64,000 bases of DNA. It comes from an uncultured bacterium (GTDB lineage Bacteria > Babelota > Babeliae > Babelales > Vermiphilaceae). The position numbers and the translations under genes are program-made. The stretch is taken from the NCBI GenBank assembly GCA_963702025.1, contig OY969699.1:1-64000 (forward strand). Direction: 5' to 3'. The notes under the pieces are model-generated. The model made no database searches. It saw only the letters and a list, made by a program, of their open reading frames with translations, and was not told where the DNA came from. Of this stretch, positions 4,772 to 47,453 are shown in pieces. How positions within the stretch are numbered: the first letter of the stretch is position 1; each line of letters opens with the position of its first letter.

Positions 4772-4802
4772 AAAAAAGGCTCGCCTTTTGTGCGAGCCTT
4801 TT
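4772..4802. terminator. Bidirectional terminator
   Basis: aaaaggctcgc-cttttgt-gcgagcctttt. Confidence 0.75.
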
Positions 4803-5188
4803 CAAATTTCGTTAATTTTATTCTTAACGAATGTTAAAATTTTTTCTGCTTTTTGAATACAAATAAACGCTGTATCCATGCCGGGCACCGAATATCCAGT
4901 ATCTGGATATTGAGTTGCATAATAATACGGGTTAATATACTGCACGTCTTCTCTCAACTGTTCAAAATTAGTATCAAATTTCTTGCATTGCGTTAATAAA
5001 TGTTCAAGATTATGATTACCCGTATTAACTTTAACTTGCTTTGATAACAAGTATGCCTTTAAAGCTTTTTCAGCAGATTGTTGAAAATAATGAAAAATAG
5101 GAGCAAGCGGAGCATTGTTTTGTAAAAAAAATTTACTCAGTTGCAAATCTTTGTCAGCAAACTTTATCCAATCAGTGGGTGTCGACAT
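4802..5188 (-). CDS. HEPN domain protein (stand-alone)
   Basis: W..FADKDL, QQSAEKALKAYLL, HNL..L and Y..TQYP motifs. Confidence 0.8.
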   Translation of the reverse strand: MSTPTDWIKFADKDLQLSKFFLQNNAPLAPIFHYFQQSAEKALKAYLLSKQVKVNTGNHNLEHLLTQCKKFDTNFEQLREDVQYINPYYYATQYPDTGYSVPGMDTAFICIQKAEKILTFVKNKINEI

Positions 5189-5286: not shown

Positions 5287-5835
5287 ATGTATAAAAAATA
5301 TTTTTTTTTGATTTCGGGGCTCATACCAATTTCTTTAGCCGGAATGCTTGAAGCGCCGCCCGCTGAGGATCTTTTTGAGCAGTTGGACATGATGCCGTAC
5401 AGTTCTTTAAACCTTGCAGCAGCTTATGAAGAAATGGGGTTACCTCCCCCGGATATCATGAAAATCAAATCTGAACCCAATGATAATGGTTTTAATTACG
5501 AGAAAGAAACGCACAAGAAAATAGGAAAAAAACAACTAGATAAAATCTATTTATGCTCGGCACCGGAGTGCCTAAAAATATTCAAAACACCTAAAGAACG
5601 AGCAAATCATTTTGCTCGTTGGCATTGCAAAGAAAAACCATTTATATGCAACTATGGAAACTGCTCAAAAAAATACTCAACCAAATCTTCTTTAAATCTT
5701 CATAACATGCGAATTCACGGCGAAAAAAAATTTCACTGTCTCACTCTTTTATGCGCGGCAAAATATGCGGTCCGAGGTGATTTAACGCAACATATCAAGC
5801 GCAAGCATAAAATAAAAACCCCATCGCGAGTTTAA
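5287..5835 (+). CDS. Secreted protein with three tandem eukaryote-type C2H2 zinc fingers
   Basis: Three C-x4-C-x12-H-x4-H fingers with KEKPF/GEKKF linkers; N-terminal hydrophobic leader. Confidence 0.85.
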   Translation: MYKKYFFLISGLIPISLAGMLEAPPAEDLFEQLDMMPYSSLNLAAAYEEMGLPPPDIMKIKSEPNDNGFNYEKETHKKIGKKQLDKIYLCSAPECLKIFKTPKERANHFARWHCKEKPFICNYGNCSKKYSTKSSLNLHNMRIHGEKKFHCLTLLCAAKYAVRGDLTQHIKRKHKIKTPSRV

Positions 5836-5870
5836 CGATGGGGCAATCAAAAATATACTTAGTTAAAATG

Positions 5871-7833
<1,963 letters not shown>

Positions 7834-9349: not shown

Positions 9350-9721
9350 TTAACCGTAAGTTGCCGGCCGGGATCTTTGCTTTGGAGCAAAAGCTGGCAT
9401 TGTAGAATCATTTTTTTGCTTGGCAACTAAAACGGCCGAAACTCCTATTATTGTTCCGGCAGCAAGTCCAAATTTTCCTGGATGTCTTTGCACAAGAGCA
9501 TATGCTGCCGATGCACTGTTTTTTAAAGCATTTTTTATATCTTGAGCAGTCAGATTGCTTACACTGCAAGAAAGACGCCCTAATCCAAAGCCGAGTGCAG
9601 CGGTAGTTGCTATTGAAATATAAGGATGTTCTGCAACCAATTCTTCAAAACTACGCTGCATCGCAGTTGAGTGCAAGCTCAATATAATTAAGAATAAACT
9701 TAATGTACTTACTATTTTCAT
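9350..9721 (-). CDS. Small secreted membrane-anchored protein, paralog 1
   Basis: Signal + AMQRSFEE..HPY + Gly/Ala hydrophobic segments. Confidence 0.75.
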   Translation of the reverse strand: MKIVSTLSLFLIILSLHSTAMQRSFEELVAEHPYISIATTAALGFGLGRLSCSVSNLTAQDIKNALKNSASAAYALVQRHPGKFGLAAGTIIGVSAVLVAKQKNDSTMPAFAPKQRSRPATYG

Positions 9722-9761
9722 AATATTTCTTTCAAGTATTTTAAAAATTTTTTTATAAATA

Positions 9762-10016
9762 TTATCCGTCAGAAGGCGGATTTGGTCGTTGAAAAGGAAA
9801 AAATCTTGGCATTGGTGAACTATAAGTAAACTTACTTGCTTTCTTTTTTGAAAGCAGCGTTAACAATTTACTGATACCTAACCCGCCTGTTGTCGCAGTT
9901 ACTATTGTAACATAAGGATGACGCGCAACGAATTCTTCAAAACCACGCTGCATTGCATTCGATCGAATGCTCAGTGTGAGTAATGATAGTAAAGTTATTG
10001 TGCTTAGTATTTTCAT
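9762..10016 (-). CDS. Small secreted membrane-anchored protein, paralog 2
   Basis: SNAMQRGFEEFVARHPY; N-terminus shared with neighbours. Confidence 0.7.
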   Translation of the reverse strand: MKILSTITLLSLLTLSIRSNAMQRGFEEFVARHPYVTIVTATTGGLGISKLLTLLSKKKASKFTYSSPMPRFFPFQRPNPPSDG

Positions 10017-10051
10017 AAATATTTCTCTAAAATAATTGAATATTTTTTAGG

Positions 10052-10453
10052 TTAACCTGCGTTTTGTGTTTCCCATCTTCTCAGTGGTGCTGATCGCGGC
10101 ATTGGTAAAATGTATGAATTTTCTTGAGAAACTATTTTATTGGTAACCATAACTCCTAATGCGCCAAGTAATGTTCCGACAAAAATTCCTGCGATGCCTC
10201 GATTGCTCTGTATCACCGAATGCGCTGCATGTGCGCTTTTACCAATAATATTTTTAATGTCACTAGCAGTTGGCACGATTCCATTTTGATAACAATATAA
10301 TGCCGTTGCGCCGGCAGCTGCTCCGGAAGTTGCTGCGGTGAGTGTTGCAAGGTAAGGTTGACGCTGAACTATTTTTTCAAAACCACGTTGCATTGCATTC
10401 GATTGCATGGTCAGCGTGAGTAAAATCAAACTTATTGTGGAAAATATTTTCAT
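10052..10453 (-). CDS. Small secreted membrane-anchored protein, paralog 3
   Basis: SNAMQRGFEKIVQRQPY. Confidence 0.75.
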   Translation of the reverse strand: MKIFSTISLILLTLTMQSNAMQRGFEKIVQRQPYLATLTAATSGAAAGATALYCYQNGIVPTASDIKNIIGKSAHAAHSVIQSNRGIAGIFVGTLLGALGVMVTNKIVSQENSYILPMPRSAPLRRWETQNAG

Positions 10454-10489
10454 AGTGATTCCTTGACGTTATAATATTTTGCAAAATCG

Positions 10490-10816
10490 TTAAATTAATT
10501 CATATTTTCGAGCATCGAGCTTTCTGCCAACAATAAATAATCCAGCACCAATTAACGTTGTGGGAAGTGACACTCTAAGCACCGCGTCCCTCAATTGTTT
10601 CATCAGAAAATATTCTTTATGCGTAGTGTCTCCAAGAGTGTATGACGCCAAGCCGGCCCACAATAATCCCATGCTGCCAAGAGTTGCACCGAGAATTCCT
10701 GAACACATCAACGAATCGCTGGCAAGTTGCTTTTTGCCTGAATGTTTTGAATCTGCGCAAATCGGTAATGCGAAAAAAGAAACGACACACAGCAGTAATA
10801 CTAATTTAATATTCAT
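10490..10816 (-). CDS. Hypothetical membrane protein
   Basis: Signal peptide plus two hydrophobic segments. Confidence 0.65.
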   Translation of the reverse strand: MNIKLVLLLCVVSFFALPICADSKHSGKKQLASDSLMCSGILGATLGSMGLLWAGLASYTLGDTTHKEYFLMKQLRDAVLRVSLPTTLIGAGLFIVGRKLDARKYELI

Positions 10817-10855
10817 CGATGTTTCCTATTATAAATTTTTTGTTGCTAACTTTTT

Positions 10856-11758
10856 TCAAGCAAAACTCGGCGGATCATCAATTTCATCAGGAGCAGATGA
10901 TGGCGCCTTTGGCCCAAAAATTTTATTTTTTACTGCACTTACTGCCGGCATTAATTTTCCATTTTTATGTGCATACAAGGCTGCCGCAGCGAGTGTGGCC
11001 AAACCACCGATAGCAATAGCCACTTTTTTATTTTCTTTGATGGTGCTGCCCAGTGCATATATCATCCGCATTGGCATGGATGGCAGATTTTTTTTGATTT
11101 CTGCAAGCACTTCTTGATCATTATATTCATTCACTGCAACACCCCATCCATATAAAGTGCTTTGCGCATCTAATTTTCTTTTAATATCATGAAGTGCTTG
11201 CGTACATTTTCGCATCAGCGGATACCGCCATTCAAAATGACAAAACTTGGAAGTTTGTTGGTTAAGCGCTTCTTCAAGCGAGTAGCCTTTGATTAATTTG
11301 TAAAATGCGCATGCAAAACCGGTGCGATCTGCACCTGCCACGCAATGAACTAAGATCGGCTCATTTTTCGGATCACTGAGCACATTGTATATTGCTTTTA
11401 CTTGTTCCTTTGTAGGTAACTTATTACCATTAAGCGTAACAGTAGTAATAATATCTCCGGCAACTGCTTTTTCTGCGTCAAACCAGATCCCATAGCCTTC
11501 GCGTAAATTCAAAATGGTTTTAATCTGTTTTTCATCAATCACCTTTTTCAAATCTTTTGGCGATAATGTTTTTGAACGATACAATGCGCCTTCTTGCACA
11601 GTTGCAAAATTATTATGGAACCAGGTGGCAGGATTTAATGCTGTTGGCATACAATAATGACGAATATAGGAAGGAATATTTTTGAACGTACTCATACCAG
11701 AAGTGGTGGCAGCAACCATGCTGAAGCTGAGAGCAAGAATGCGATACCAATTTTTCAC
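10856..11758 (-). CDS. Secreted dual-specificity/tyrosine phosphatase with C-terminal membrane anchor
   Basis: LVHCVAGADRTG P-loop (CX5R); NFATVQEGALYRS; signal peptide. Confidence 0.88.
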   Translation of the reverse strand: MKNWYRILALSFSMVAATTSGMSTFKNIPSYIRHYCMPTALNPATWFHNNFATVQEGALYRSKTLSPKDLKKVIDEKQIKTILNLREGYGIWFDAEKAVAGDIITTVTLNGNKLPTKEQVKAIYNVLSDPKNEPILVHCVAGADRTGFACAFYKLIKGYSLEEALNQQTSKFCHFEWRYPLMRKCTQALHDIKRKLDAQSTLYGWGVAVNEYNDQEVLAEIKKNLPSMPMRMIYALGSTIKENKKVAIAIGGLATLAAAALYAHKNGKLMPAVSAVKNKIFGPKAPSSAPDEIDDPPSFA

Positions 11759-11767
11759 GGGAAAATC

Positions 11768-12355
11768 CTAGTTATAATTTTGTTTAACAGAATCGACCAC
11801 TTCAGATAGCCCATTAAGACCTGCAGCAAGGGATGCTAATTCATCCTGATTAACTGGCGGGTTAACTACGTAGCTTTGTATAAAGGGCAGATGCGCACGC
11901 AGATCTTGGAAATTCGGATCATCGCAGAGCGCCGGCACATAGGCATCAGGACATCTGGTTATACAATCATTGGTATACAAATCGCCGCCAATGTTTTGTT
12001 TGGTCGCAATCGCATTTTCTATCATAAATTTATCGGTATGGATCGCTTTGCTTAAGTTGGTAAAAAAATCTCTGGTTAATTGCGCAGCTGCTGCCGGAAT
12101 TACTACAATGCTGAGTTGCGCGCCGGCACTATTTACTGGTGAATTATGTGTGCCAAATTTATAGGCACAGATTCCGCCGATAGCTGCAAGGGTGATGGCA
12201 CCGGCTACTCCATAGCGATAAGGATGACGTGCAATTGATGCTTTGAGATCTTGTATTTTTTGACGAGTCCAAGTTGTGGCATTAGATGATTCTTGGCCTT
12301 GCACAGAAATACTTGCAAGACCAAGAATTAAAATGAGATGAATTATAGTTTTCAT
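11768..12355 (-). CDS. Secreted hypothetical protein with HPY-TM motif
   Basis: Signal peptide; IARHPYRYGVAGAITLAAIGG. Confidence 0.7.
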   Translation of the reverse strand: MKTIIHLILILGLASISVQGQESSNATTWTRQKIQDLKASIARHPYRYGVAGAITLAAIGGICAYKFGTHNSPVNSAGAQLSIVVIPAAAAQLTRDFFTNLSKAIHTDKFMIENAIATKQNIGGDLYTNDCITRCPDAYVPALCDDPNFQDLRAHLPFIQSYVVNPPVNQDELASLAAGLNGLSEVVDSVKQNYN

Positions 12356-12417
12356 TCAGAATCCTTTGCAAATTTTTAAAAGCTATAAAAACGATATCTG
12401 AATAAAGTATAGCATGT

Positions 12418-13674
12418 TTAATTGGTTCTACCACAAACATGGTCAACTATATTCCGAATACGGCTCACGCTACGCTTAAATAATTGGCTATTCTGGTATG
12501 CCCTATTATCTTCTAAACTCGTCACTTCTTGCTGTCTGCTTGGTTCACCCATAGAATTTACAAGCGCAGGATCTTCTTCTTCCACATCACTCATTTGTGA
12601 CCCCTGTTTGAATTCTTGAACCCAAGGATGCTTTTCCTGAATGTCTGTTTTTTCAAAATCTTGGACCCACGGATGTGCTTGATTTGCATTATTATTTGTA
12701 TCAGCCACAGGAGGTAACTCTCTCTGAGCAACAAATCCTGAATCAGGAAATTGCTCATTCTTGGTAATTTGGCGTATTAAGTCATCCGATCCTTGGCCTT
12801 GCAAACGTAACGTTTGTTCAATGCTCGGATTATGCTCTGTTATTATTTTTAAACGGTTTTGAGCAGCTGGTGGCATAGTTTGGGGCAAATCAGAAACAGT
12901 AGATGCTGCGTTCTTGGCTGCTGGAAATGCATTATTGAATGCATTCAGCTCATTAGGGCTTAGTGGTTTAAATTCATGGTTAGTAATAACCTGATTATTA
13001 AAATTGTCCATGCGTGTTTGGGCAGGCGCAAATCGTGCTACTTCTTCTTCCATGGCCTCAGCCGCTTGATAGCTATCCCATATTTCATTGAATTCGTCAA
13101 TATTTGAGGTAACGGCATTAGATGCGATTTTTGGAGCGACTGGCGGTTCAATCCTAGGCATCACCGGCAATTGGTCCAATCCATTTACTGATTTAGCACT
13201 CAATGCATTAACTGCAGAAGAAATGCTATTCCAGCCATCACAAACCTTTTTAACGACTTTGGCACCTACTATAGTACCAACAGTGCCACCTACTATGGCT
13301 GCTAGTCCAGCTGCCGTGTGAATAATTGTTTTATTTTCTTCATAGGTCTTTTTACACCATGAGCCGATTTCATTACGCTTTACATACGCGTAACCACCTG
13401 CTACAGCACCCAAGGTAAACCAAGGATTTTTCCGTGCAAAGTCAGCCGTACCTACTGCGACATTCCCAAGAGCATTGGCTGTACCCTTCGCCGCAATGGC
13501 AGCATTTTTTACCAAATGCTCAGTAATTGCTTTTTTAGCTATTGGTTCTTGCGTAACTGCTTTTTCTATTTTTTGAGCAGCGCCCCATGATGGCCAGAAT
13601 GCATACAGGGATCCAAATGGCGACAGCAATGCAAGAGCACTGAGCAGTAAGCTCTGCTTTACATTCAATTTCAT
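12418..13674 (-). CDS. Secreted membrane-anchored protein with WxxxF repeats
   Basis: Signal peptide, two hydrophobic segments, low-complexity C-half with HPWVQDF and HPWVQEF. Confidence 0.75.
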   Translation of the reverse strand: MKLNVKQSLLLSALALLSPFGSLYAFWPSWGAAQKIEKAVTQEPIAKKAITEHLVKNAAIAAKGTANALGNVAVGTADFARKNPWFTLGAVAGGYAYVKRNEIGSWCKKTYEENKTIIHTAAGLAAIVGGTVGTIVGAKVVKKVCDGWNSISSAVNALSAKSVNGLDQLPVMPRIEPPVAPKIASNAVTSNIDEFNEIWDSYQAAEAMEEEVARFAPAQTRMDNFNNQVITNHEFKPLSPNELNAFNNAFPAAKNAASTVSDLPQTMPPAAQNRLKIITEHNPSIEQTLRLQGQGSDDLIRQITKNEQFPDSGFVAQRELPPVADTNNNANQAHPWVQDFEKTDIQEKHPWVQEFKQGSQMSDVEEEDPALVNSMGEPSRQQEVTSLEDNRAYQNSQLFKRSVSRIRNIVDHVCGRTN

Positions 13675-13779
13675 ATTAAATCTCCAGCGTTAATAGAGGT
13701 AGATATTTAAAATCTACCTCTCTATTTTTTCTAAAAATGTGCCCTCTCTTTTGTAGCACAATAATCATAGCGTCAAGAA

Positions 13780-15477
13780 TTAAACACTCTCAATCATTAT
13801 TTCCCAAAGATGTATATGACCTAAGTCGATTGCTAATTCAGCAGCGCTTTTGTTAGCTTTATCTTTAATATCATGAATTAAGCCTCCAACAAGATCGGCA
13901 TTTTTAACAAACGGCTTTAATATATCGCGCACCATTTGCTCATTGTTGGCAATCACTGCTCGATGCAACGCGGTATTGCCATCAGTATCAACAGCAGATT
14001 CTTTCTCAAGCAATTTCTCTATCTGCTCATTTTCGATACTTGGATTTTCCTCCACAAGATGCAACTGATATACCGGCTCTTCAACAATCTTTAATTGGTA
14101 TTCGCTTGATACCGGTAGCACCGTATTTAAGAGCTTGTTATCTTCTCTTTTCGGTGCAGAGTTATTTGTTTTTGCAAAGCGAGTCAATGATTCAACTATT
14201 TTTGAATCAACAGCATTGTCAACGTTCGAATGAGCATTATTATGCGATTGAGCAAAAGTATTAAGGACAAATTGTTCAACCGGCTGATACTGCTGCATAG
14301 GCAACTCTTCATCGCGAGCAAAAGCATATTTCATTGGTTGATCAGCATCTGAGTTTTGCCTATAAATTTCCGTTTCAACAGGCTTAATTTTTGTAAATTT
14401 ATGGGTGGTAGCAAGAGGCTCTGCCCATTTTAACTGCTTTTTGGTGCCTTCTTGTTTCACCTGAATTGGTTCTTCCATATCATTTACTGCGGGAACATTT
14501 TGTTCATCTTTCTGCACTAAATTTGCAGGAGTATAAAATAATGAGGGTGCAAGCGGCGCCGCGGGAGCGGGTCTTGTTTTGGGAGTAAGTATTACCTTTT
14601 TTAGTCTTGCTGGCGCAAGCGGTGCTGAATCGATAGATAATTGAGTATTTATTACTAGACCGTTTTTTTTACTTGCGGGTGCAGGTTTTGTTTTAGGAAC
14701 GAGTATTACCTTTTTTAGTCTTGCTGGTCCTTGAACAATCGGTAATTGCTTTGAATTATTATTTTCTGCAGACGCATTTACTTCAGCTTCAGGTAGTTGA
14801 TAACCAACATACCACATTGGGATGGTATCTGCAGGGGTTGAAAATTCTTCAACTGGCTCTTGAACAACCGCTAATTGTTTTGAATTATTATTTTCTTCTT
14901 GCTCATTCTTTTTAGTGTGAGTTGGTAGGATATCAGTTTGAGGATGGTCATTATTTACAATGCTTTGATTATTGTTATTGCTAGATAAATTGCTATCATC
15001 AAGCCACTTAACTTGAGCAGATTGGGCATTTTGATTATTAATCGCGCCTTGCTCAAAACTCGGCAATGAAGTATTGGTGTCAGTATTTACTACTTCGCGA
15101 ACAAGAGCAGCAGTACCGGCTCCGGCTGCTAGTGCACTAGCAGTACCAAGCATAGCGTTGCTTGATGGCACATAATTGCCCGCTTTACCCAATGCAGCAA
15201 CAGCGTTTTGAGTTTGCTTTTGAATAAAGGGTGAGTTTTGTACGTAGCCCTTAGTTGCATGCATTACAGCTCCTAGTGAAGGGGCTTTTGCAACAGCATT
15301 TGAACCAACCGTTTTAAGTGTTTTCCAGGTTGGCACTTTATTCCACTGATTAAGAGTCCATTCTTTAAGAGCTTTTGTTCCTTGGGACAAGACTGGCAAT
15401 TCCATAGGATAGGTTGCAAAAGGGATTGATAGTAAAAGACCTAACGAGAGTATCTTCATTGATTTACGCATATTCAT
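13780..15477 (-). CDS. Secreted low-complexity protein with internal repeats and C-terminal ankyrin
   Basis: DGNTALHRAV ankyrin motif; PARLKKVIL.PKT.PAPA x2; ENNNSKQL x2. Confidence 0.8.
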   Translation of the reverse strand: MNMRKSMKILSLGLLLSIPFATYPMELPVLSQGTKALKEWTLNQWNKVPTWKTLKTVGSNAVAKAPSLGAVMHATKGYVQNSPFIQKQTQNAVAALGKAGNYVPSSNAMLGTASALAAGAGTAALVREVVNTDTNTSLPSFEQGAINNQNAQSAQVKWLDDSNLSSNNNNQSIVNNDHPQTDILPTHTKKNEQEENNNSKQLAVVQEPVEEFSTPADTIPMWYVGYQLPEAEVNASAENNNSKQLPIVQGPARLKKVILVPKTKPAPASKKNGLVINTQLSIDSAPLAPARLKKVILTPKTRPAPAAPLAPSLFYTPANLVQKDEQNVPAVNDMEEPIQVKQEGTKKQLKWAEPLATTHKFTKIKPVETEIYRQNSDADQPMKYAFARDEELPMQQYQPVEQFVLNTFAQSHNNAHSNVDNAVDSKIVESLTRFAKTNNSAPKREDNKLLNTVLPVSSEYQLKIVEEPVYQLHLVEENPSIENEQIEKLLEKESAVDTDGNTALHRAVIANNEQMVRDILKPFVKNADLVGGLIHDIKDKANKSAAELAIDLGHIHLWEIMIESV

Positions 15478-15630
15478 GCGATTTCCTCCATAGAGATTGA
15501 TTTATAACCTTACATTCTACTCCCTAGATTATAGAAAATAAAAAGACTGTCAAGGATTCTACAGCACTTCTGGGTACTATATTTCTAATAATCAATTTTA
15601 ACCAGGGATACAGAGTTAGTTTATGAGCAA

Positions 15631-15656
15631 AAAAGCCCCCCGGTTAAGGGGGGCTA
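15631..15656 (-). terminator. Intrinsic terminator
   Basis: agcccccc-ggttaa-ggggggct flanked by an A-run (U-tail on the minus strand). Confidence 0.8.
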
Positions 15657-15661
15657 GTTAC

Positions 15662-16180
15662 TTACCAATTCCTGCGAACTAATAATGACGGATTTGGTGC
15701 ATGAGCCTGAATACTGGCTTGTGCGGCATCATCCTCCACTATCTGAGCTAATTCAAAAGGAGTATCACCATTTACATCCTTTGCCTTAAGATCAGCGCCC
15801 TGCTTAATCAGCTTTTCAATTAAAGAGCTTAACTCTAACTGCGCTACATCAATAGCAGTGGTGTTAAAAGGACAACCAATCGATTGCATTTGAGTAAGCA
15901 ATGATTTTTTATCCAGTTCAAGCTGATGCCTTTTTTCGATCACCTCAAAAAGAGCCTTTTCCAGATTGCCATTGGTAGAACGCAGCAAATGAATCATCGC
16001 TTTTAATTCAACGGGAAGCGAATCAATATTAATCTGCCCAAATCTGGCTAATGCCTTTTGGGTCAGCCAAACCAGTGATGGCAATCGCTTATTTGGCACA
16101 ACTTGTGACGGCTTTTCCATCGCAAGCAGGCAAAAGCAGGATAATAACAGAAATACGAAAAATGATTTAAATAATTTCAT
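15662..16180 (-). CDS. Secreted ankyrin protein with N-terminal SOCS-box-like motif
   Basis: LPSLVWLTQKAL...IDSLPVELKAMI; LIKQGADLKAKDVNGDTPFELA. Confidence 0.75.
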   Translation of the reverse strand: MKLFKSFFVFLLLSCFCLLAMEKPSQVVPNKRLPSLVWLTQKALARFGQINIDSLPVELKAMIHLLRSTNGNLEKALFEVIEKRHQLELDKKSLLTQMQSIGCPFNTTAIDVAQLELSSLIEKLIKQGADLKAKDVNGDTPFELAQIVEDDAAQASIQAHAPNPSLLVRRNW

Positions 16181-27888: not shown

Positions 27889-29187
27889 TTAACAGTTTTG
27901 ACTCACCGTTACGCAAGCCGGTGAAGATGCATTATTTTGTGCATCAACAGATACTATGCAATAACTATAATTAACATTTGGGATACGATTGTGAGCAATA
28001 TATTTTAATGGGCCTGATGCTGAAACTGTGGCAACTAATTGTGACAAGCCAGTATTTGAATAAATATTATAGCTTGCAGGAGTAGTTCCGGCAGTTGGCG
28101 AATTCCAATTTAAAATATTAATTAGATCTTTTTGCAGCAGAAAAATATCTTGTGATTTACATCCAGTAACATTAACCGGTGGTAAAATGGATACCATAAT
28201 AGAAATAGTATTATTATTATTAGCTATGTAACCAGTTGCTCCATTTGGTGTAATCGTCTCTACTAAAGGATTATCAATTGTATCATTAGGATCACTTACT
28301 ATTCCCGTCACCAAATTTGTTGCAGTATTAAGAATGCTTACGGTTGATGCGCCATAATTGCCTACGTATAATGTTTGTCCATCGGGACTCATGGTAATTC
28401 CAAAGGGCTCATTAAAAGTTGAATCTGATACTGTTTCAATTGAGGTATTAGTCGCAACATCAACAATTGTTATGGTATCTAAATTATAATTTGCAACATA
28501 CAGTTTTGAGCCATCCGGAGTTATTGCTAAGCCATAGGGATAATTAAATGTTCCGGTAACCGGGCTAACAACAAGAGTGGATAAATTGAGTGCATACACA
28601 CCGGTATTAAAGTTACTTACAAATGCCTTAGAACCATCAGGAGTAATAACAATATTTCCAAGTTCTGTAGAACCTACTGTTATGTTTTGTATTGTTGCAT
28701 TGGTTGATAGATTTACTTGTGTTACAAATGCCCCGCCACTATTAGCAACATAACCGCGTGTTCCATCGGGAGTTATAACCATATATGCGGGGAATGATAC
28801 TGCTGCAGCACTCTGATTTATTGTTCCCGTTACCGTATCTGTAGCAACATTTATAATACTAATACTGGGAGCATTGTAATTCATAACATATGCAGTAGTT
28901 CCATCGGGTGTAAAAACAGTGCCATAAGGGCCATTAAAGGTATTACTCGAATCAGTAACTAAACCCGTTACGGTATTCGTTGCTACGTTTACAATGCTTA
29001 CCGTATTGGTATTGTAATTAGCAACATACATTTTTTGACCGTTAGGAGAAATGACCATAGCATATGGTCCATTTATAGTTGATGAACTATCGTTCACAAG
29101 ACCGACCACCATATTTGGATTTCCAAACATAGAATATGGCATCATCAAAAAGATAAAATAAATATATTTTAATGAATAGTTAAGCAT
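27889..29187 (-). CDS. YncE/YVTN beta-propeller protein with FN3-like C-terminal domain
   Basis: About 7 repeats of P..I.ITPDG...YVAN...TVSI; signal peptide. Confidence 0.88.
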   Translation of the reverse strand: MLNYSLKYIYFIFLMMPYSMFGNPNMVVGLVNDSSSTINGPYAMVISPNGQKMYVANYNTNTVSIVNVATNTVTGLVTDSSNTFNGPYGTVFTPDGTTAYVMNYNAPSISIINVATDTVTGTINQSAAAVSFPAYMVITPDGTRGYVANSGGAFVTQVNLSTNATIQNITVGSTELGNIVITPDGSKAFVSNFNTGVYALNLSTLVVSPVTGTFNYPYGLAITPDGSKLYVANYNLDTITIVDVATNTSIETVSDSTFNEPFGITMSPDGQTLYVGNYGASTVSILNTATNLVTGIVSDPNDTIDNPLVETITPNGATGYIANNNNTISIMVSILPPVNVTGCKSQDIFLLQKDLINILNWNSPTAGTTPASYNIYSNTGLSQLVATVSASGPLKYIAHNRIPNVNYSYCIVSVDAQNNASSPACVTVSQNC

Positions 29188-29201
29188 TATTTGCTCCCTT
29201 T

Positions 29202-30587
29202 TTATGAACAGCTTTGATTGATCGCTACTTGTACCGGATTTGAACTCGTGCCTACCGAATTAGTACCTACTATGAAATAAACTCCAGTAGTATTTGGCAA
29301 TTGATTATGATCTAAAAATTGTAATGGTCCGCTTGCAGAAATAGTCACGATTAAATCAGTTAATCCTGCATCGCGGTAAATACTATAACTTAATGGTAAT
29401 GAAGGGCCAGTTGCATTCCAGGTGAGTTTATTAATCAAATCTTCTTGAAAAAGAAATCTGTCTTGCGTTTTGCATCCGGTTGCTGCAATTTGGAACGATG
29501 GTAACGCAATAACATTAACCGTATTGGAAATATAGTTTGATACATAGGCAAATTGCCCGTTTGGAGAAATTGCAACGTTGGCAGGAGATTGATCAACTGC
29601 AATGATCGGCGGGATAACTGTGTTTGTTGCAGTATCAATAATGTTTATGGTTCCTTGTCCGGGAGTTAAATCAGCAAATTGGGGCGCCCCAACGGCATAC
29701 AATGTATTGTAATTACTTGCATATGCTAAACGCCCATCGGGGGTGATCGCTAAACCGGAAGGCTGTATGCCTAGATTAATTGTCGCAATTATTGTATCGC
29801 TACTTAAATCAACAACGCTCACCGTGGTGCCATAAGGCGCAAAATTATTGCTGCCAAAATTGGTAACATAGGCATAATTGCCATCAGGCGTTATTGCTAT
29901 TGCAAATGGCCCGGAAAAGCCGCTTATAGTATCGATTACCGTATTGTTACTCGTTTGTATTACACTTATTGTCCCATGGCCAGGATTACCATCAACATAA
30001 TTAATTACGTAGACATAAGCCCCATCAGGAGTTATCGCCAATGATGCAGGGGCAAGACCAACGTTAATTAGCCCAACAATAGTATTTGTATTCAGATCAA
30101 CAACGTTCACGGTGCTTGCAAGACCACTGTCACCATCCGCACCATAATTATTCACGTATGCGGTAGTTCCATCGGGAGTTATCACAAAACCTGATGGCCC
30201 ATTAAATCCGTCGATTACCCCCGATACGGTATTAGTGGCTATATCTATAATTGTTACCGTTGTACCATAACTATTGGTCACATAGGCCAGAGTTCCGGCA
30301 GCATTAATGGTCACGGTATACGGCTCACTAAAACTAGGATCATTAATGGTTTGCTGCAGAGTATTATTTGTTAGATTTAACACGCTCACAGAATCTGAAC
30401 CGGGAATCCCATAATTATTATTGTTCGCAACATAGGCAAAAAGATTGTCAGGAGTAACGGCAAGCCCGGCAGGAGTAACGCCCACAGGAATAGTTGCTAT
30501 CACTGTATTGGGGTTCACGGCATGTACAAATGATGAAAGTGAAAATAGTACAAAAGTTAACAGGTGACGCAAAAATAACTGAGGCAT
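29202..30587 (-). CDS. YncE/YVTN beta-propeller protein with FN3-like C-terminal domain
   Basis: AITPDG..AYVTN repeats; signal peptide. Confidence 0.88.
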   Translation of the reverse strand: MPQLFLRHLLTFVLFSLSSFVHAVNPNTVIATIPVGVTPAGLAVTPDNLFAYVANNNNYGIPGSDSVSVLNLTNNTLQQTINDPSFSEPYTVTINAAGTLAYVTNSYGTTVTIIDIATNTVSGVIDGFNGPSGFVITPDGTTAYVNNYGADGDSGLASTVNVVDLNTNTIVGLINVGLAPASLAITPDGAYVYVINYVDGNPGHGTISVIQTSNNTVIDTISGFSGPFAIAITPDGNYAYVTNFGSNNFAPYGTTVSVVDLSSDTIIATINLGIQPSGLAITPDGRLAYASNYNTLYAVGAPQFADLTPGQGTINIIDTATNTVIPPIIAVDQSPANVAISPNGQFAYVSNYISNTVNVIALPSFQIAATGCKTQDRFLFQEDLINKLTWNATGPSLPLSYSIYRDAGLTDLIVTISASGPLQFLDHNQLPNTTGVYFIVGTNSVGTSSNPVQVAINQSCS

Positions 30588-32308: not shown

Positions 32309-32468
32309 TAAAACCCGAACTTATCAAAGAGTCAAGAAATGCGCAGCTTCTTCAAAGCACTCAAGATTCGGCCAATTATTATTTTTAAGGTTTTTTTATT
32401 GACTTATTGATCCATAAGCAACTACCATGAAACATGAATTTTATAAATGTTTATTAACAAAGGAAAAT

Positions 32469-33767
32469 ATGTTCAAAAAAAGTTTATTGGCTATTGCTCT
32501 TTTTTCGTTTCATGGTCTCTACGCTTATGTATCAAATACCATTATAGATAATATACCGATACCCAACTCCGGAGTTCCTTTATCTGTTGCGGTAACCCCG
32601 AATGGAGAGTTTGTCTATCTTATTAATCTAGGCAATAATAGTGCAAATGTAATAGCTACCGCAACTAATACGGTATTATCGACACCGCAGCTCAATAATA
32701 TTTTCAACGTTCCACAATCATTGGCAATAACTCCTAATGGCGAGTTTGTTTATGTTGCAAGTGCAGGCAATGGGAGTGTAGTGGTGATAGAAACTGCAGG
32801 CAACACTGTGATATCAACACCAAATTTCGTTTCTGCATTTGATTATCCTCAATCGATTGCAATAACCCCCAATGGCAGTTTTGCCTATGTTGCTAACGAG
32901 ATCGTGAATGTTTTAAATATTTCTAATAACACAATCCTCACAACACCAGGACTTGATAGTGGCTTTGCTGCTCCAGTTTTTATAGCAATAACTCCTGATG
33001 GCAACTTTGCATATGTAGCCAATCTCTTTTCGCCTGCGGTTACCGTGATAGATACGGCCACTAATACGATAATACCTGCGCCAGGATTATCTGATGGCTT
33101 TTTCTTTCCCCAATCAATCACTATTACGCCGAATGGTGCTTTTGCCTATGTTACTAATGGGCTCACCAGCAATACGGTTGTGGTAATAGATATAGCAACT
33201 AATACGATTTTATCTACCCCAGGACTCACTGGTGTCTTTGCGTCTCCAGTTTCGATTGCCTTTAGTCCAGATAGTAGTTATGGATATGTTTCAAATTCGG
33301 GAGGAAACACAGTGAGTGTCATTGATACGGCAAGCAATACCGTAATCAATACTATTACTGGGTTCGATAGCCCACAGACAATCGCGATTACGCCTAACGG
33401 ACAGTATGCCTATGTTGCTAACGCAGGCAGTAAAACTGTCAGCGTTGTTTTTATTGGTGTTCATACACCAACACTTTTCACCGGCTGCAAAGGAAAGAAT
33501 ATTTTCTTAACCCAAACTGAGCATTACAATAATTTAACCTGGTCTGCGCCTGCGGGGGGAAGTACTCCAGTCTCATACGCGATTTATAGCGACGCTGCGT
33601 TAACTCAATTGGTTGCAATAGTTCCGGCATCCGGACCATTGCAATACGTTGTTAATAATACAAATCAAAACTTAGATTATACCTATTACCTTGTAGCCGT
33701 AGATGCCTCAGGAAACATTTCATCGCCCGCAGTTACCACCGTTACTCAGTTTTGTAAAAGAAACTAA
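32469..33767 (+). CDS. YncE/YVTN beta-propeller protein with FN3-like C-terminal domain
   Basis: AITPNG.FAYV repeats; signal peptide. Confidence 0.88.
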   Translation: MFKKSLLAIALFSFHGLYAYVSNTIIDNIPIPNSGVPLSVAVTPNGEFVYLINLGNNSANVIATATNTVLSTPQLNNIFNVPQSLAITPNGEFVYVASAGNGSVVVIETAGNTVISTPNFVSAFDYPQSIAITPNGSFAYVANEIVNVLNISNNTILTTPGLDSGFAAPVFIAITPDGNFAYVANLFSPAVTVIDTATNTIIPAPGLSDGFFFPQSITITPNGAFAYVTNGLTSNTVVVIDIATNTILSTPGLTGVFASPVSIAFSPDSSYGYVSNSGGNTVSVIDTASNTVINTITGFDSPQTIAITPNGQYAYVANAGSKTVSVVFIGVHTPTLFTGCKGKNIFLTQTEHYNNLTWSAPAGGSTPVSYAIYSDAALTQLVAIVPASGPLQYVVNNTNQNLDYTYYLVAVDASGNISSPAVTTVTQFCKRN

Positions 33768-33857
33768 AGAAAAAGAATATTGACTTGTTGATTTATGAAC
33801 AAATACCATTGAACTATAAATTTTATGAATCGATATTTTTTTTAACAGAGGAAAAAA

Positions 33858-35129
33858 ATGTACAAAAATAAATTATTGGGTATTGCTCTTTTTTCGTTTC
33901 ATTTACTATGCGCGTATGAATCAAATACCATTATAGAGAATATATCCGGCTTTACTGTTCCTTTATCACTTGCAGTAACCCCAAATGGAGAGTTTGTCTA
34001 TGTTATTAATGTGGGCAATAACAGTGCGAATGTAATAGCTACTTCAACAAATACTCTATTATCCACACCGCAGCTTAATAATATTTTCAATGTTCCACAA
34101 TCCGTAGCCATAACTCCTAATGGCGAGTTTGTTTATGTTGCAAGTGCAGGCAATGGGAGTGTAGTGGTGATAGAAACTGCAAGCAACACGGTGATATCAA
34201 CACCAAATTTTGTTTCCGCATTTAATTATCCTGAATCAATCGCAATAACACCGAATGGCAACTTTGGATATGTAGCTACCGATGCTGTGAATGTTATAAA
34301 TATTGCAAACAATACTATTCTTACAACGCCAGGACTTGATAGTGGCTTTGCTGCCCCAGATTTTATCGCAATAACTCCCGATAGTAACTTTGCTTATGTA
34401 ACTAATCTCTTTTCGCCAGCAGTTACCGTGATAGATACGGCAAGTAATACTATAATTCCTACGCCAGGATTGTCTTCAGGCTTTTTATTTCCCCAATCGA
34501 TCACTATTACGCCGAATGGTGCGTTTGCCTATGTTACCAATGGACTTTCGAGCAATAGCGTTGTGGTAATAGATATAGCCACTAATACCATTTTATCCAC
34601 ACCAGGACTTAGTGGCATCTTTGGATCTCCGGTTTCGATTGCCTTCACTCCCGATAGTAAATACGGCTATGTCTCAGATTCAGGAAGTAACACCGTGAGT
34701 ATCATTGATACGGCAACCAATACCGTAATTGATACCATCGCAGGATTTGCTTCACCACAGTCAATAGTAATCACGCCTAATGGGCAGTATGCCTATGTTG
34801 CTAACTCTGGCAACAACACCGTAAGTGTTATTTTTATTGGCGTGCACATACCATCAAATTTTAAAGGCTGCAAAAGAAAAACCCAAAATGAATATTCCAA
34901 TTACTTACACTGGGCCGCTCCTGCAGGGGGAAACAAGCCAGTAGCATATGCGATTTATAGTGATGCTGCCTTAACGCAATTGGTTGCAACAGTTCCGGCA
35001 TATGGGTGTTTACAGTATTTTGATCATAATATAAATCCAAATACATCATACACCTATTACCTGGTAGCTATCGATGCTGCGGGAAATATTTCATCGCCGG
35101 CAGTTACTACCGTTACGCAGAATTGTTAA
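33858..35129 (+). CDS. YncE/YVTN beta-propeller protein, tandem paralog of the previous gene
   Basis: Long identical stretches with 32469-33767; upstream region also duplicated. Confidence 0.88.
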   Translation: MYKNKLLGIALFSFHLLCAYESNTIIENISGFTVPLSLAVTPNGEFVYVINVGNNSANVIATSTNTLLSTPQLNNIFNVPQSVAITPNGEFVYVASAGNGSVVVIETASNTVISTPNFVSAFNYPESIAITPNGNFGYVATDAVNVINIANNTILTTPGLDSGFAAPDFIAITPDSNFAYVTNLFSPAVTVIDTASNTIIPTPGLSSGFLFPQSITITPNGAFAYVTNGLSSNSVVVIDIATNTILSTPGLSGIFGSPVSIAFTPDSKYGYVSDSGSNTVSIIDTATNTVIDTIAGFASPQSIVITPNGQYAYVANSGNNTVSVIFIGVHIPSNFKGCKRKTQNEYSNYLHWAAPAGGNKPVAYAIYSDAALTQLVATVPAYGCLQYFDHNINPNTSYTYYLVAIDAAGNISSPAVTTVTQNC

Positions 35130-39145: not shown

Positions 39146-39724
39146 TTGAAAGATTTCCCCTCCGTATTGAATTGTAAAATCATCGCTGATTCATTAAACC
39201 AACTGCATTTAGATAAGATTGAATTTCACAACAAACATTATGGCAAGCTCATAAATCAACAACAGCAGATTACCAAAATGCTGGATAATTTATATATCGA
39301 TAAAGTGAAAGGGAGAATTACTGAGAGCGAATATGAAAAATTCTACATTTCATTTTATGATGAAGCGGCAGAAATAAAATCCCAACTTGATAAATTAGGG
39401 GAAGCTCAAGACAACTACTTTATTACCGCAAAATACGTACTAGATCTGGTTAACCGAGCTCACGAATTATTTGAAAGTTCTGAAGTTGAGGAAAAGAGAC
39501 AATTAATCAAGCTTGTACTTCAGAACCTAAGACTTGAAGATGATAAGTTGCTCTGGGACGCTGTTAAACCCTTTGATACACTCTTAAATGTGTCCGATAG
39601 TCAAGGATGGTGTGGCCTGCCTAATGCATTCAGAAACAAAGAAGCAACCATGGGATTCACCTTGCAGCATATCCAGACGATATATTCATCATTTAGAATT
39701 GAACTTCAAGAATTAATTTTTTAA
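39146..39724 (+). pseudogene. 3' remnant of a large serine recombinase
   Basis: Closely similar to 46850-47280 (KMLDNLY.DK.KGRITESEY, SSEVEEKRQL); no catalytic domain. Confidence 0.88.
39600..39620 (+). repeat. Candidate att site (left), direct repeat with 47256-47276
   Basis: GTCAAGGATGGTGTGGCCTGC vs GTCAAGGATGGTGTAGCCTGC (20/21). Confidence 0.6.
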
Positions 39725-40281
39725 TACCAAAAAGAACCAAAGTGTTTTGCAAACAAGTCTAATCCTTCTTGTACTCTTTTTTTATGCTCATCAAAGATAG
39801 GCTGATATTTATCATATAGGGGTCCACATATTTTTATTCTTTCTTCCATTTCATAGCTGCGATATCCCAGCTTATTGGGATTGGTTTCCAGCTCTTCTAT
39901 TTCGCGCATTTGAGTTTGATAAGTCTTTCTAATCTTTCGGCATTCTTTAAACATCTCTTTTTGAGCTGGACCATCCCAATCTATTGAATTATCTGAAAGC
40001 GCTTTGAATGAATAGACGATTTTATCAAGAATTGAAATCCATTTTTGTAAGCACTGTGCTTCATCTTCTTCTGACATATCATATGGGTTGTTAATATCCT
40101 CAGTCATAGTCATTGGAAAACCGGCGCTAGTTCCCTTCTTATCATATCTGGCGCGATATTTTTTAAAAAGAGGATACAGAACACGCGCTATAGTTTGATC
40201 CATATCCATAAGATCCATCCAGGTTGCTGACACTTTTACTTTATCTTTTCCTTTTTTTGGATATTCGATTAATACTTTCAT
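39721..40281 (-). CDS. Phage-type conserved hypothetical protein (gene X)
   Basis: D.TIARVLYP.F..GFP..W..ILDKI..SF..VQEGLDLF pattern; second remnant copy at 36884. Confidence 0.65.
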   Translation of the reverse strand: MKVLIEYPKKGKDKVKVSATWMDLMDMDQTIARVLYPLFKKYRARYDKKGTSAGFPMTMTEDINNPYDMSEEDEAQCLQKWISILDKIVYSFKALSDNSIDWDGPAQKEMFKECRKIRKTYQTQMREIEELETNPNKLGYRSYEMEERIKICGPLYDKYQPIFDEHKKRVQEGLDLFAKHFGSFWY

Positions 40282-41401
40282 GCTGTTTTCGTTTTTCTTT
40301 TATATTTTTTTCTGCTAACAATTCTTGCTTTTCCAACTCTGCTTCTATTTCTTTAACCGTTGGTAAACTTCCTTTGAGATCTTTTGGCAATGATTCAACT
40401 ATCTTAGCCTGATAACTTGCAACTCCTATAGGCTTAGAGCTTGCTTGCAGCGCATATTCAACAGTGAGACTATCTTTATCTTTGCAAAGAATAAGACCTA
40501 TTGTTGGCTTATCTCCTGGATGCCGCATTTCATTATCAACTGCTGATAAATAAAAGCCTATCTGACCCGTATCGCGTACATCAAATTCTCTTGCCTTAAG
40601 CTCTACAATAATAAAGCAACGTAATTTAAGATGATAAAATAGAAGATCTATATAATAATCTTTATTGCCGATATGCAAATGGACTTGTCTTCCAATAAAC
40701 GCAAAGCCCTGGCCAAGCTCCAAGAGAAACTTTTGAATATGATCAGTTAATCCTTGCTCCACATCTCTTTCATTATGTTCAGTATGAAGCGTTAAAAAAT
40801 CAAACAAATAGGGATCTTTTAATGATTGATGAGCCATATCAGAATGAGGTTTGGGGAGCTTTACTTCAAAATTGGTAATGGCTTTGCCTTGCCTACCATA
40901 AAGATCGGATTCAATCCAAGATTCAAGCATGCTACGGCTCCAACCATTTTCTATGGCTTTTTGAGCATACCAAAAGCGCACCTTATTCTCTTTCAGTTTT
41001 TCTAGTAATACCGCATTATGACCCCATGGAATTCTAAAAATGGGCAAATTTTCAATTTGTCCCACAGCTGTGGGATTTTTAGAATAGGCAGTAAAGAAAG
41101 CTTTCATTCTAAAGATATTAGATCTTGAAAATCCAGCTATCCCTGGAAAAGCGGCTTGTAGATCATGAGCAAGTTTTTCAACAAAATTTGTTCCCCAGCC
41201 ACTTTTTTCTTGCTTTTCAGTGATAATATTTCCAATTGCCCAATAAAGCATAGTAAGCTCTTGACCGGCAGCAATAGCAGCTTTAATTTGAGATTCTTGA
41301 ATTTTATTCTTAATATCCGCAAGTGTTTGCGCATATTCTTTGGTAGACATTTTTATAACAGTAGCTTTATTTTTCTTTGCAATATTACTTTTCTTTGCCA
41401 T
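40241..41401 (-). CDS. YhcG/DUF1016 PD-(D/E)XK nuclease domain protein
   Basis: LYW.IG, KDPYLFDFL, FLLELGQGFAF, IDLLFYH, IVELK. Confidence 0.93.
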   Translation of the reverse strand: MAKKSNIAKKNKATVIKMSTKEYAQTLADIKNKIQESQIKAAIAAGQELTMLYWAIGNIITEKQEKSGWGTNFVEKLAHDLQAAFPGIAGFSRSNIFRMKAFFTAYSKNPTAVGQIENLPIFRIPWGHNAVLLEKLKENKVRFWYAQKAIENGWSRSMLESWIESDLYGRQGKAITNFEVKLPKPHSDMAHQSLKDPYLFDFLTLHTEHNERDVEQGLTDHIQKFLLELGQGFAFIGRQVHLHIGNKDYYIDLLFYHLKLRCFIIVELKAREFDVRDTGQIGFYLSAVDNEMRHPGDKPTIGLILCKDKDSLTVEYALQASSKPIGVASYQAKIVESLPKDLKGSLPTVKEIEAELEKQELLAEKNIKEKRKQHESINRISKKRKR

Positions 41402-41429
41402 TACTAATTTCCCTTTTTTGTATTTCTAT

Positions 41430-41831
41430 TTAAGCAAGCAACTTTTTATACTGATATAATAAATAATCAATTTCTCTTACTTCTTGTTCAAGAATATTTC
41501 GTCGTTCATAGAATTCACCTAATTTCTTAAATTCATCAAAGGGAATAACTCTAGCAGGTTGCACATCTAATGGGACAAGAGCGGCTAAAGGTTGTGATTT
41601 CTCCGCTGCTTCATTCAGCTCTTTGTGTGTTTGCCTAGACAGCTTCTCTAATCTTTCAACCTCTGTCATAAAAAAGACACGAATCGACTCGCAAATGAGT
41701 TCTGATTTATCTTTTTTATTATTTTGTTTAATAGTGGTTGCATAGAGCTGCATTAACATTTCATATTCTTGGCTGCTCAGATAATGCGTTACTTTTACTT
41801 TTTTATCTGCATTATTTTTTTTGATTTCCAT
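41430..41831 (-). CDS. Hypothetical protein, possible ribbon-helix-helix regulator
   Basis: KVTHYLS..EYEML...KSELICESIR pattern. Confidence 0.55.
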   Translation of the reverse strand: MEIKKNNADKKVKVTHYLSSQEYEMLMQLYATTIKQNNKKDKSELICESIRVFFMTEVERLEKLSRQTHKELNEAAEKSQPLAALVPLDVQPARVIPFDEFKKLGEFYERRNILEQEVREIDYLLYQYKKLLA

Positions 41832-42354
41832 AAGATTCCCTTAATTACAAAAAAAAGACAATTAAAATGGTATTTCCTTGGCCCGCCAATGTCAAATAAA
41901 TTTTTTTTCTAAATTTACCATCATGCCATCAATAGTATTTTAGGAATTAAATAAATGTCTTTGCTTGCCTTTCTCAAAAATCGCATTTATAATCACCCAC
42001 AATAATAAAGCATCCGTCTTCGTTCTCTAAACTACGCCGGACAAGTCATTGCATCAAAGGATGAGCAGCATGAAACACTTCATATACATCAGATTATTAT
42101 ATCTGAGTCAAATCACCCAGGATGGGGAATGTTGCGAGCAGAATCAATTAAGTTGGCTCGGGACTAAATAAGCCCCATCTATCTAAATAAATAATATTAT
42201 TAATTTAAGCTGAATTTCAGCATCGATGATACTGATGAGCAGTATCGGATCGAGCCTGTTCTTCGTCCTTCGAGACGCATCTAGCGATGCCCTCAGGATG
42301 AGCGGAAGGCGCGTTTACTCCCAAGCAAAGTCGAGGGATCAAAAGCGAAGTAGA

Positions 42355-42606
42355 ATGTATATGTTGTTCAAAAATTCTCGTGTGCGCCGCCGATTGGTTG
42401 TGCGCAATCCTATGACTATCAAAATTGCTCTTCCTTTGGATGATCATCGTAAGCTTGAGGCCTTTGTTGCATTGTTGGCACAAATAGATAAGCGCAATAA
42501 AGCAAACGGCAAAGACACCAAATCAAGAGATCCAACCAAAGCTAAAGATGCCTTCTTAAGGCAATATAGAAAAGGCTCACCTTTAAGTGGGCCTATTTTT
42601 TTTTAA
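42355..42606 (+). CDS. Small hypothetical protein (start uncertain)
   Basis: ORF track; LEAFVALLAQIDKR helix. Confidence 0.4.
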   Translation: MYMLFKNSRVRRRLVVRNPMTIKIALPLDDHRKLEAFVALLAQIDKRNKANGKDTKSRDPTKAKDAFLRQYRKGSPLSGPIFF

Positions 42607-42663
42607 CAATTGTTATACTGTTTTAAAAGTTTTACTCAACTCTACATATGTAAAGGAATCATC

Positions 42664-43314: not shown

Positions 43315-43433
43315 CGTTAAAATTTTCTGAAAGTATAAAGAAAAAGGCTCACTTTTAAGTGGGCCCTTTCTTTTCTTAATAAATAAACTATCCTGCATTA
43401 TTGATCTTATAATCTTCAGCTTGGTATATACAT

Positions 43434-44624: not shown

Positions 44625-44722
44625 TGGAGCCATTTTCAAGCAGTCTTGACTTTCATTGGAATTATGCCAAACTGAATAATAACATAAAGAATTATACGCC
44701 TAATTGTCTAAATGGAGAATTT

Positions 44723-45595: not shown

Positions 45596-45818
45596 GCTCT
45601 ATAAGTGCAAAGCATTTACTCTTTATGATTTAAACATTTGAGTTTTCATATTAATTAAGTGTCGCACCATAAGGAAATACAATATTAATGCGTTATTAGG
45701 CACTTGGTAATGCAGGTAAAAGACCGTCTAAGGCTCGTAAAGACATAGAAATATTTTGCTTTCCCTTTAAACTGCTACCTGGTTCTGAACACTTCAACCA
45801 TCCAGCAGGTATACATTC

Positions 45819-47353: not shown

Positions 47354-47404
47354 AACGATTATAAAAATAAAAAAAATAACATCGTGAAAATAAGTATTGA
47401 CTTG

Positions 47405-47422
47405 TTAACCAAATTTAGTAAA
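47405..47422. promoter_or_regulatory. Palindromic operator next to TTGACT -35
   Basis: ttaaccaaatttagtaaa; second copy at 48513-48530. Confidence 0.65.
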
Positions 47423-47453
47423 TTTACTACCCGATACCTAAGGAGTAAGGACT

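Follow-up and report, generated by a model that had tools for sequence, protein, structure and literature searches.

A leader-bearing protein with three C2H2 fingers from a Babelota bacterium: a predicted exported DNA binder within a phylum-wide finger family

The window analysed here is 64,000 nucleotides long and begins a single contig of 1,596,033 bases, in a genome that is 95% complete. The probe TM6_681 for Babelota and the primer TM6-V5-F2, which overlaps with it, fit the 16S gene of this genome with 0 mismatches (oligo sequences from the accessible part of PMC12172432), while a taxonomic comparison by GroEL had yielded matches of 62-71% only, in other phyla. The genome (G000) carries three ATP/ADP-translocase genes, and an ankyrin-like motif occurs in 48 of its open frames. 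The gene of interest (Table 1) is an intact open reading frame of 182 codons without introns, as the initial annotation had it; a second in-frame ATG at 5275 is an alternative start. Its GC3 of 0.355 compares with a genome mean of 0.350 (sd 0.047, 638 long ORFs), and the mature form of the protein would comprise about 163 residues and 18.9 kDa. The convergent neighbour is presumably groEL, a name we assigned by recognising its translation. A terminator-like hairpin that overlaps the 3′ end of the finger gene probably closes the convergent groES-groEL operon, in a scan that found 2 such sites against 1.4 expected in shuffled sequence. A promoter scan at the finger gene gave signal at chance level only, and an Rfam search of the window returned no match. 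Divergent from the finger gene lies a HEPN-domain gene (PF05168, E 4.9e-20; 4802-5188, minus strand), with no nucleotidyltransferase partner seen directly beside it.

Table 1. Position of the finger gene, its parts and its convergent neighbour in the window.
Feature	Position	Strand	Basis or remark
Finger gene, 182 aa, predicted export leader and three C2H2 fingers	5287..5835	+	ORF list, finger pattern, GC3
Predicted Sec signal peptide, aa 1-19	5287..5343	+	Leader matrix score
Acidic, hydrophobic, Pro-rich segment, aa 20-58, predicted activation-domain-like	5344..5460	+	Charge/composition, activation predictor
Basic patch K77-K82, just upstream of finger 1	5515..5532	+	Sequence; without K[KR]x[KR] match
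C2H2 finger 1, aa 90-113	5554..5625	+	-1 T, 3 E, 6 N invariant in 4 orthologs
C2H2 finger 2, aa 121-144	5647..5718	+	-1 T, 2 S, 3 S, 6 L invariant in 4 orthologs
C2H2 finger 3, aa 151-174	5737..5808	+	2 G, 3 D, 6 Q invariant in 4 orthologs
Terminator-like hairpin, overlapping the 3′ end of the finger gene	5818..5844	-	2 sites found vs 1.4 expected in shuffles (weak)
groEL (presumed), convergent neighbour of the finger gene	5871..7550	-	Conserved locus marker in the genus

Elsewhere in the window, a run of leader-bearing orphan genes (9350-16180) is a candidate effector cluster; it includes a gene for a tyrosine/dual-specificity phosphatase-like protein (Pfam) with an N-terminal leader (10856-11758, minus strand). 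A further protein (55805-56638, minus strand) carries a leader, segments that resemble ankyrin repeats and, at the C-terminus, a Cys/His pattern of RING type, and is a candidate secreted ubiquitin ligase. Four proteins (27889-30587, minus strand, and 32427-35129, plus strand) we take to be paralogous, leader-bearing YVTN beta-propeller-like repeat proteins with a C-terminal Ig/Fn3-like domain. The region 39146-52864 is a probable integrated mobile element, with what we assume to be a serine-recombinase-like ORF in two frames (45819-47353), a partial second copy of it (39146-39724), and primase-like (49062-51455), ImmA-like (47753-48490) and YhcG-like (40241-41401) ORFs. By their look, the genes at 52943-53836, 58465-59391 and 62249-63421 presumably encode two aminoglycoside-phosphotransferase-family kinases and one serine-hydrolase/beta-lactamase-family protein.

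The initial annotation had read three tandem C2H2 fingers in the finger protein, and these were borne out. Tested against the classical pattern C-x2-4-C-x12-H-x3-5-H with an aromatic residue before the helix, all three fingers conform, with the spacing C-x4-C-x12-H-x4-H, and their zinc ligands are invariant in four orthologs. The Pfam check gave a match to zf-C2H2 (PF00096) at E 4.3e-5, although its 24.2 bits fall under the curated cut-off of 25.2; NCBIfam held no family match for the protein. The linkers had been described as TGEKP-like, which applies to them in part (CKEKP, GEKK), but the orthologs keep the length of the linkers and not the TGEKP sequence, and the conserved TGEKP (H/C) linker of Kruppel-type arrays is absent from the source protein itself.

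Comparison with solved structures placed the fingers among classical C2H2 domains. The best PDB sequence match was GLI (2gli, E 4e-14), followed by WT1 and ZNF410, among 118 sequences at E<=0.1, and identity to solved C2H2 chains was about 25-35%. AlphaFold2 predicted the finger region as three beta-beta-alpha hairpin-helix units with a mean pLDDT of 85, and the top Foldseek matches were DNA complexes of ZFP91, WT1 and KLF4, with a probability of 1.0 to C2H2-DNA complexes; TFIIIA and a WT1-RNA complex were also among the structural matches of the array. An Atlas search with the whole protein returned zf-C2H2 clusters, with one IDD cluster at rank 16. Membership of the plant BIRD/IDD family was rejected: the match to the BIRD-IDD finger model is weak (13.7 bits against a cut-off of 27, E 0.053) and covers finger 3 only, and the fingers here are C2H2 whereas the IDD set contains C2HC.

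The leader peptide proposed earlier was recovered with a heuristic matrix (not SignalP) trained on 164 other leaders of the genome, the finger protein being excluded. Its score of 12.3 equals the median of the 164 leaders, and 1 of 4488 internal controls scored as high. The predicted cleavage site precedes Met20, which is the usual pattern of the lineage: many leaders of the genome show a small residue and then Met. The next residue is Glu in 164 of 414 proteins and an acidic residue or its amide (Glu, Gln, Asp, Asn) in 230. Proteins that begin Met-Glu, Met-Gln, Met-Asp or Met-Asn are substrates of eukaryotic NatB, and these N-termini could be an export signal or mimic a stable host protein.

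As for the route of export, the genome has two secretins, and searches of this 95%-complete genome found no match for FHIPEP, the type III export gate, and none for VirB4. DsbB likewise had no match, and one VKOR gene is present, so that the Cys residues of the protein could be oxidised in the periplasm, which counts against the model set out below. According to the accessible parts of PMC6561590, PMC4378268 and PMC4776705, the Babelota described so far live as parasites inside protist cells, use Sec and type II export, and have many effectors that bear a signal. In Chromulinavorax, signal peptides are reported in 44% of proteins, replication takes place in the host cytoplasm, the host mitochondrion is remodelled and the nucleus is degraded late (PMC6561590, in part).

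The acidic, proline-rich segment between leader and fingers is as previously described: the tile aa 20-58 has a net charge of -8, and its W, F and L residues together number 7. Its reading as an activation domain is less certain. By the equations set out in the available part of PMC10550315, the tile passes equation 3 (improved) but fails equation 1 (original, stricter), and among the four orthologs the source protein alone passes the improved predictor, the other three passing neither. Residues 20-52 are unchanged (33/33) in a relative with 82% identity; across the genus the N-terminal regions diverge without conservation, and an Atlas search with aa 20-88 returned nothing. The nuclear localization signal (NLS) that had been proposed at the C-terminus, IKRKHKIK, had to be abandoned, as the stretch overlaps finger 3 and contains the last zinc-binding His of that finger. 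The classical NLS consensus, K[KR]x[KR], is absent from the source protein and from the regions outside the fingers in its orthologs. The basic patch K77-K82 may possibly serve as a non-canonical nuclear-import or phosphate-contact element. An IKSE motif at aa 60-63, spotted by the SUMO-site consensus, was set aside because it is lost in the closest relative.

A profile search identified true orthologs in four of the eight genomes of the genus and none elsewhere among 261 genomes of the phylum; the four orthologs that built the profile scored E 1e-41 or better, and the remainder 5e-18 or weaker. They share 40-47% identity, and those of three congeners (G002, G004, G006) adjoin groEL. Counting finger genes in general, the groEL neighbourhood is occupied in the source genome and in G002, G004, G006 and G007, that is in five of the six genus genomes in which groEL was located; in G001 the finger gene was absent within about 1.5 kb of groEL, and the groEL query found no groEL in G003 and G005.

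Alignment of the four orthologs revealed where the array has been held constant. At the helix positions -1, 2, 3 and 6, which in C2H2 fingers contact bases, 10 of 12 columns are invariant, as opposed to 0 of 15 at the interleaved helix-surface positions (-2, 1, 5, 8, 9) and 7 of 63 among the other gap-free non-ligand columns. The difference between contact and surface columns has a nominal Fisher p of about 1e-5, obtained on four sequences that are themselves related. All four orthologs carry Arg at position 10 of every finger, and the 82%-identical relative has five changes in finger 1, none of them at -1, 2, 3 or 6. Conservation of this kind would fit a protein that recognises a single, unchanging DNA site, and a protein interface would explain a conserved helix face equally well. 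What speaks against the DNA-reading view is that Arg is missing at -1 and 6 among the invariant contact residues, where high-affinity binders of G-rich DNA carry it.

The closest relatives, a cluster of four proteins with 82% identity (P0003-P0006), all end inside finger 2, and the cluster representative is present on 11 contigs. Judged by protein letters only, their tail seems to come from another reading frame behind a Lys-Lys (A-rich) stretch, so that the truncation looks frameshifted and may represent a pseudogene, a slippage site or a recurring error. As these proteins stop within finger 2, the full array may be dispensable there, which likewise counts against the reading of one fixed DNA site.

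The source gene is one genus-level conserved member of a family expanded across the phylum, an aspect absent from the initial annotation. Of 261 Babelota genomes, 81 had PF00096 matches, which cover 49 of the 145 genera and lie above the curated cut-off in 59 genomes; 180 genomes gave no match. In two control phyla the same search, which scored at most about 31 candidates per genome, yielded matches in 4 of 261 genomes for the phylum to which a Desulfovibrio belongs and in 1 of 261 for that of a Roseibacillus, at one or two per genome. The source genome itself has 12 plausible multi-finger ORFs, 11 of them with a leader; two further finger-pattern matches look like shadow frames. For the family we sampled 77 loci, which are the best-scoring matches and hence biased, and whose genomes and kin are not independent. 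They gave 93 multi-finger frames, of which 90 were kept after removal of three antisense shadows. By the leader matrix, a leader is present in 72 of 76 5′-complete family proteins; among 400 control stretches, 64 score as leaders. Inter-finger gaps matched [TS]G[EQK][KR]P in 88 of 236 cases (set of 68 family proteins).

Motifs that the source protein lacks or shows faintly are enriched in the family. We compared 63 leader-bearing proteins, picked by a looser heuristic that 669 of 1057 long frames pass, with length-matched controls drawn from 204 secreted non-finger proteins of the source genome alone. The motif K[KR]x[KR] occurred outside the fingers in 36 of the 63 (control mean 9.5, max 19); upstream motifs mostly lay 5-23 residues before finger 1, with 21 of 29 within 23 residues of it. 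The improved activation predictor was passed by 18 of the 63 (control mean 1.9, max 6) and the original by 9 (control 0.7).

The family also appears to vary at the positions that the source gene has kept. Within 71 recently duplicated finger pairs from 28 proteins, which are not independent pairs, the two amino acids are different in 50% of cases at contact positions and in 26% elsewhere on the surface. Variation is greatest at 6, 3 and -1, and position 3 showed 37 amino-acid changes and 0 synonymous-only changes. Within the 65 proteins with at least four fingers, -1, 3 and 6 vary more than -2, 1 and 5 in 45, less in 17, and equally in 3. PRDM9 and KRAB fingers diversify in a comparable manner. 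Tandem clusters of leader-bearing multi-finger genes were seen at G053:C1:234000-241500 (L100, L135, L148, L152, L155, L156), at G064:C1:1022000-1032000, and on G093:C2 and G094:C28; their genes have up to 12 fingers each, in minisatellite-like finger repeats. Another locus (L139 472-2271, G052) combines a leader, an unrecognised N-terminal domain of about 280 residues and a finger array with an in-frame stop.

Relative to classical C2H2 factors (PF00096), the source protein shares the beta-beta-alpha fingers, the 12-residue C-to-H spacing, a near-canonical linker register and an acidic low-complexity segment; it differs in being bacterial, in its export leader and in linkers that are not TGEKP in its subfamily. 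The Ros/MucR proteins likewise bind zinc through Cys2His2 in bacteria, but are described in the accessible part of PMC9779718 as cytoplasmic, with a single finger, a 9-residue spacer and a larger globular domain. Membership of that group was ruled out by the 12-residue spacers, the three fingers and the leader, and no ROS_MUCR match was found in Pfam or NCBIfam. With TAL effectors and Pantoea HsvG/HsvB the source protein shares a proposed logic, namely a delivered modular DNA-binding array whose variable residues set specificity; TAL-type nucleomodulins mimic host transcription factors by means of an NLS and host gene activation (PMC7819608, in part). It differs from the TAL effectors of Xanthomonas and Ralstonia by an unrelated fold, a Sec leader in place of type III delivery and a protist instead of a plant host. 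Membership was excluded here too, given no TALE Pfam match and no FHIPEP match in the genome, and by analogy the protein most likely works like a TAL-effector-type transcription-factor mimic outside that family.

Two further groups come closer in domain type. Magnaporthe oryzae MoHTR1/2 combine a signal peptide with a C2H2 finger, enter the host nucleus and bind promoters there (PMC7672089, in part); they offer a functional precedent in fungi, by analogy, and MoHTR3 is described as a further secreted C2H2 nuclear effector of this species. They are made by a fungus and modelled as single-finger GAGA-like repressors, whereas the Babelota arrays are multi-finger and have acidic segments. Among bacteria, the host-associated Endozoicomonadaceae (Kistimonas, Endozoicomonas, Ca. 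Endonucleibacter) have many PF00096 counts, up to 205 zf-C2H2 in one genome in Supplementary Data 5 of PMC12491435, so that Babelota are not the only host-associated bacteria in which C2H2 fingers have expanded. The same data list 45 and 18 counts for the intranuclear parasite Ca. Endonucleibacter. This group belongs to another phylum and has animal hosts, and PMC12491435, in its accessible parts, notes the enrichment of zinc fingers in Kistimonas with a possible role in host interaction and gives counts, without an analysis of export, NLS or recognition residues.

No eukaryotic donor family stood out in a representative search, which was dominated by giant multi-finger proteins. The best single stretch of eukaryotic multi-finger proteins reached 55.7 bits against 134.7 for an ortholog, and the three helix signatures of the source protein were found 1, 3 and 0 times among 4377 fingers. 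None of 50 candidates from a search of longer proteins reached E<=0.001, a result of little weight, and two loci from a metagenome scan were rejected as long eukaryote-like arrays, not orthologs. The GLI match and the weak IDD signals are leads only as regards origin.

The secreted C2H2 family of Babelota is apparently undescribed in print. We found no description of it in the full-text literature, a scope outside which most subscription journals fall. The main texts of PMC6561590, PMC4378268, PMC4776705 and PMC12172432, as far as accessible, contain no C2H2 discussion, the passages of PMC10117894 that bring together Dependentiae and zinc fingers are unrelated to the finger family, and "C2H2" is absent from the supplements of the Babela paper. 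Table S5 of PMC4776705 lists eight C2H2-annotated genes in SOIL31, SOIL82 and Babela, in singleton rows. For bacterial effectors in the role of a host transcription factor, the accessible part of the nucleomodulin review PMC7819608 gives chiefly the TAL effectors and HsvG/B, from plant pathogens, and the Ehrlichia TRP proteins; C2H2 arrays are not among these or the other nucleomodulins that it names.

The initial annotation had proposed a secreted eukaryote-style transcription factor. The export-class leader, the conserved base-contacting residues, the intracellular-parasite phylum and the enrichment of NLS and activation motifs in the family speak for this proposal; it is weakened by an NLS that turned out to be part of finger 3 and by the single ortholog of four that passes an activation predictor. 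With modest confidence, we favour a model in which the predicted-exported three-finger protein enters the nucleus of a protist host, binds specific host DNA and changes, probably raises, expression. The protein would be exported by Sec with predicted cleavage before Met20, and would then pass the outer membrane, most likely through a type II system, as the two secretins and the lack of type III export-gate and VirB4 matches suggest. Its fingers would be reduced and loaded with zinc in the reducing cytosol of the host. Entry into the nucleus would occur at about 19 kDa by diffusion, for which an 18.9-kDa protein is small enough, or by way of the basic residues around the fingers. There, helix positions -1, 2, 3 and 6 would read about 9-10 bp in the major groove, which we infer from the fold together with the selective conservation, and the acidic N-terminal segment would recruit a coactivator. 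This last step is the weakest, since the source protein passes the relaxed predictor only and its three orthologs pass neither.

That weakness leaves room for an exported, specific host-DNA binder that acts as a competitor or repressor by occluding the sites of host factors, with the acidic segment a mere spacer. We consider this unlikely, even though the failure of three of the four orthologs at the activation predictor, and of the source protein at the stricter version, agrees with it, as do N-termini that diverge across the genus and, from the accessible text of PMC7672089, the repression of targets by MoHTR1/2 without intrinsic repressor activity. The acidic tile does, however, clear the improved predictor; the family contains about ten times as many such tiles as the controls, and the 82% relative carries the segment unchanged.

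It is rather unlikely that the fingers of an exported effector bind a host protein or RNA instead of DNA. Some classical C2H2 fingers do behave in this way, and the absence of a classical NLS, the non-canonical linkers, the Arg-poor contact residues, the TFIIIA and WT1-RNA structures among the matches and the weak, below-cut-off BIRD-IDD match of finger 3 (E 0.053) would be compatible with it. What tells against such a partner is that conservation falls on exactly -1, 2, 3 and 6 in three fingers and not on the interleaved positions, that linker lengths are kept, and that duplicated fingers of the family diversify at the same contact positions.

An exported DNA binder might also act outside the nucleus, on host mitochondrial DNA or conceivably, as we infer, on the cytoplasmic genomes of co-infecting giant viruses, which we regard as improbable. 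Against it stand the over-represented NLS motifs and activation-like tiles of the family, and mitochondrial presequences are unlike acidic N-termini such as that of the source protein. For action on non-nuclear DNA speak the lack of a classical NLS in the source protein and the mitochondrial remodelling by Chromulinavorax described in part in PMC6561590. Least credible is a Ros/MucR-like regulator of the bacterium itself, a decaying relic of horizontal acquisition or an assembly contaminant: Met20 is usable as an internal start, close relatives look frameshifted and the promoter signal is at chance, but the leader is of the export class of the lineage, the C-to-H spacing is 12 residues against the 9 of Ros (PMC9779718, in part), finger genes adjoin groEL in five of six genus genomes, and eukaryotic contamination is unlikely for an intronless gene that adjoins groEL on a single 1.6-Mb Babelota contig with genome-typical GC3.

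Returning to the favoured model of an exported, nuclear host-DNA binder, a broader proposal, which we hold to be evenly balanced, is that Babelota may have arrived on their own at a zinc-finger equivalent of TAL effectors: a phylum-wide set of arrays of 2-12 fingers that grows by tandem expansion, bears NLS motifs and acidic activation segments, is exported by Sec and type II systems and diversifies in its base-reading residues towards chosen promoters in protists, with the source gene locked on one long-standing site. The claim is tempered by the C2H2 annotations already tabulated for TM6 and Endozoicomonadaceae and by a function that is predicted only. If true, protist parasites would possess a programmable-effector system of independent origin, the second of its kind, built on the main DNA-reading module of eukaryotes. 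C2H2 specificity is readable by microarray or SELEX, so that the question of which host genes Babelota control becomes testable; finger specificities may point to the hosts of uncultured lineages, and the family would be a natural source of new finger specificities.
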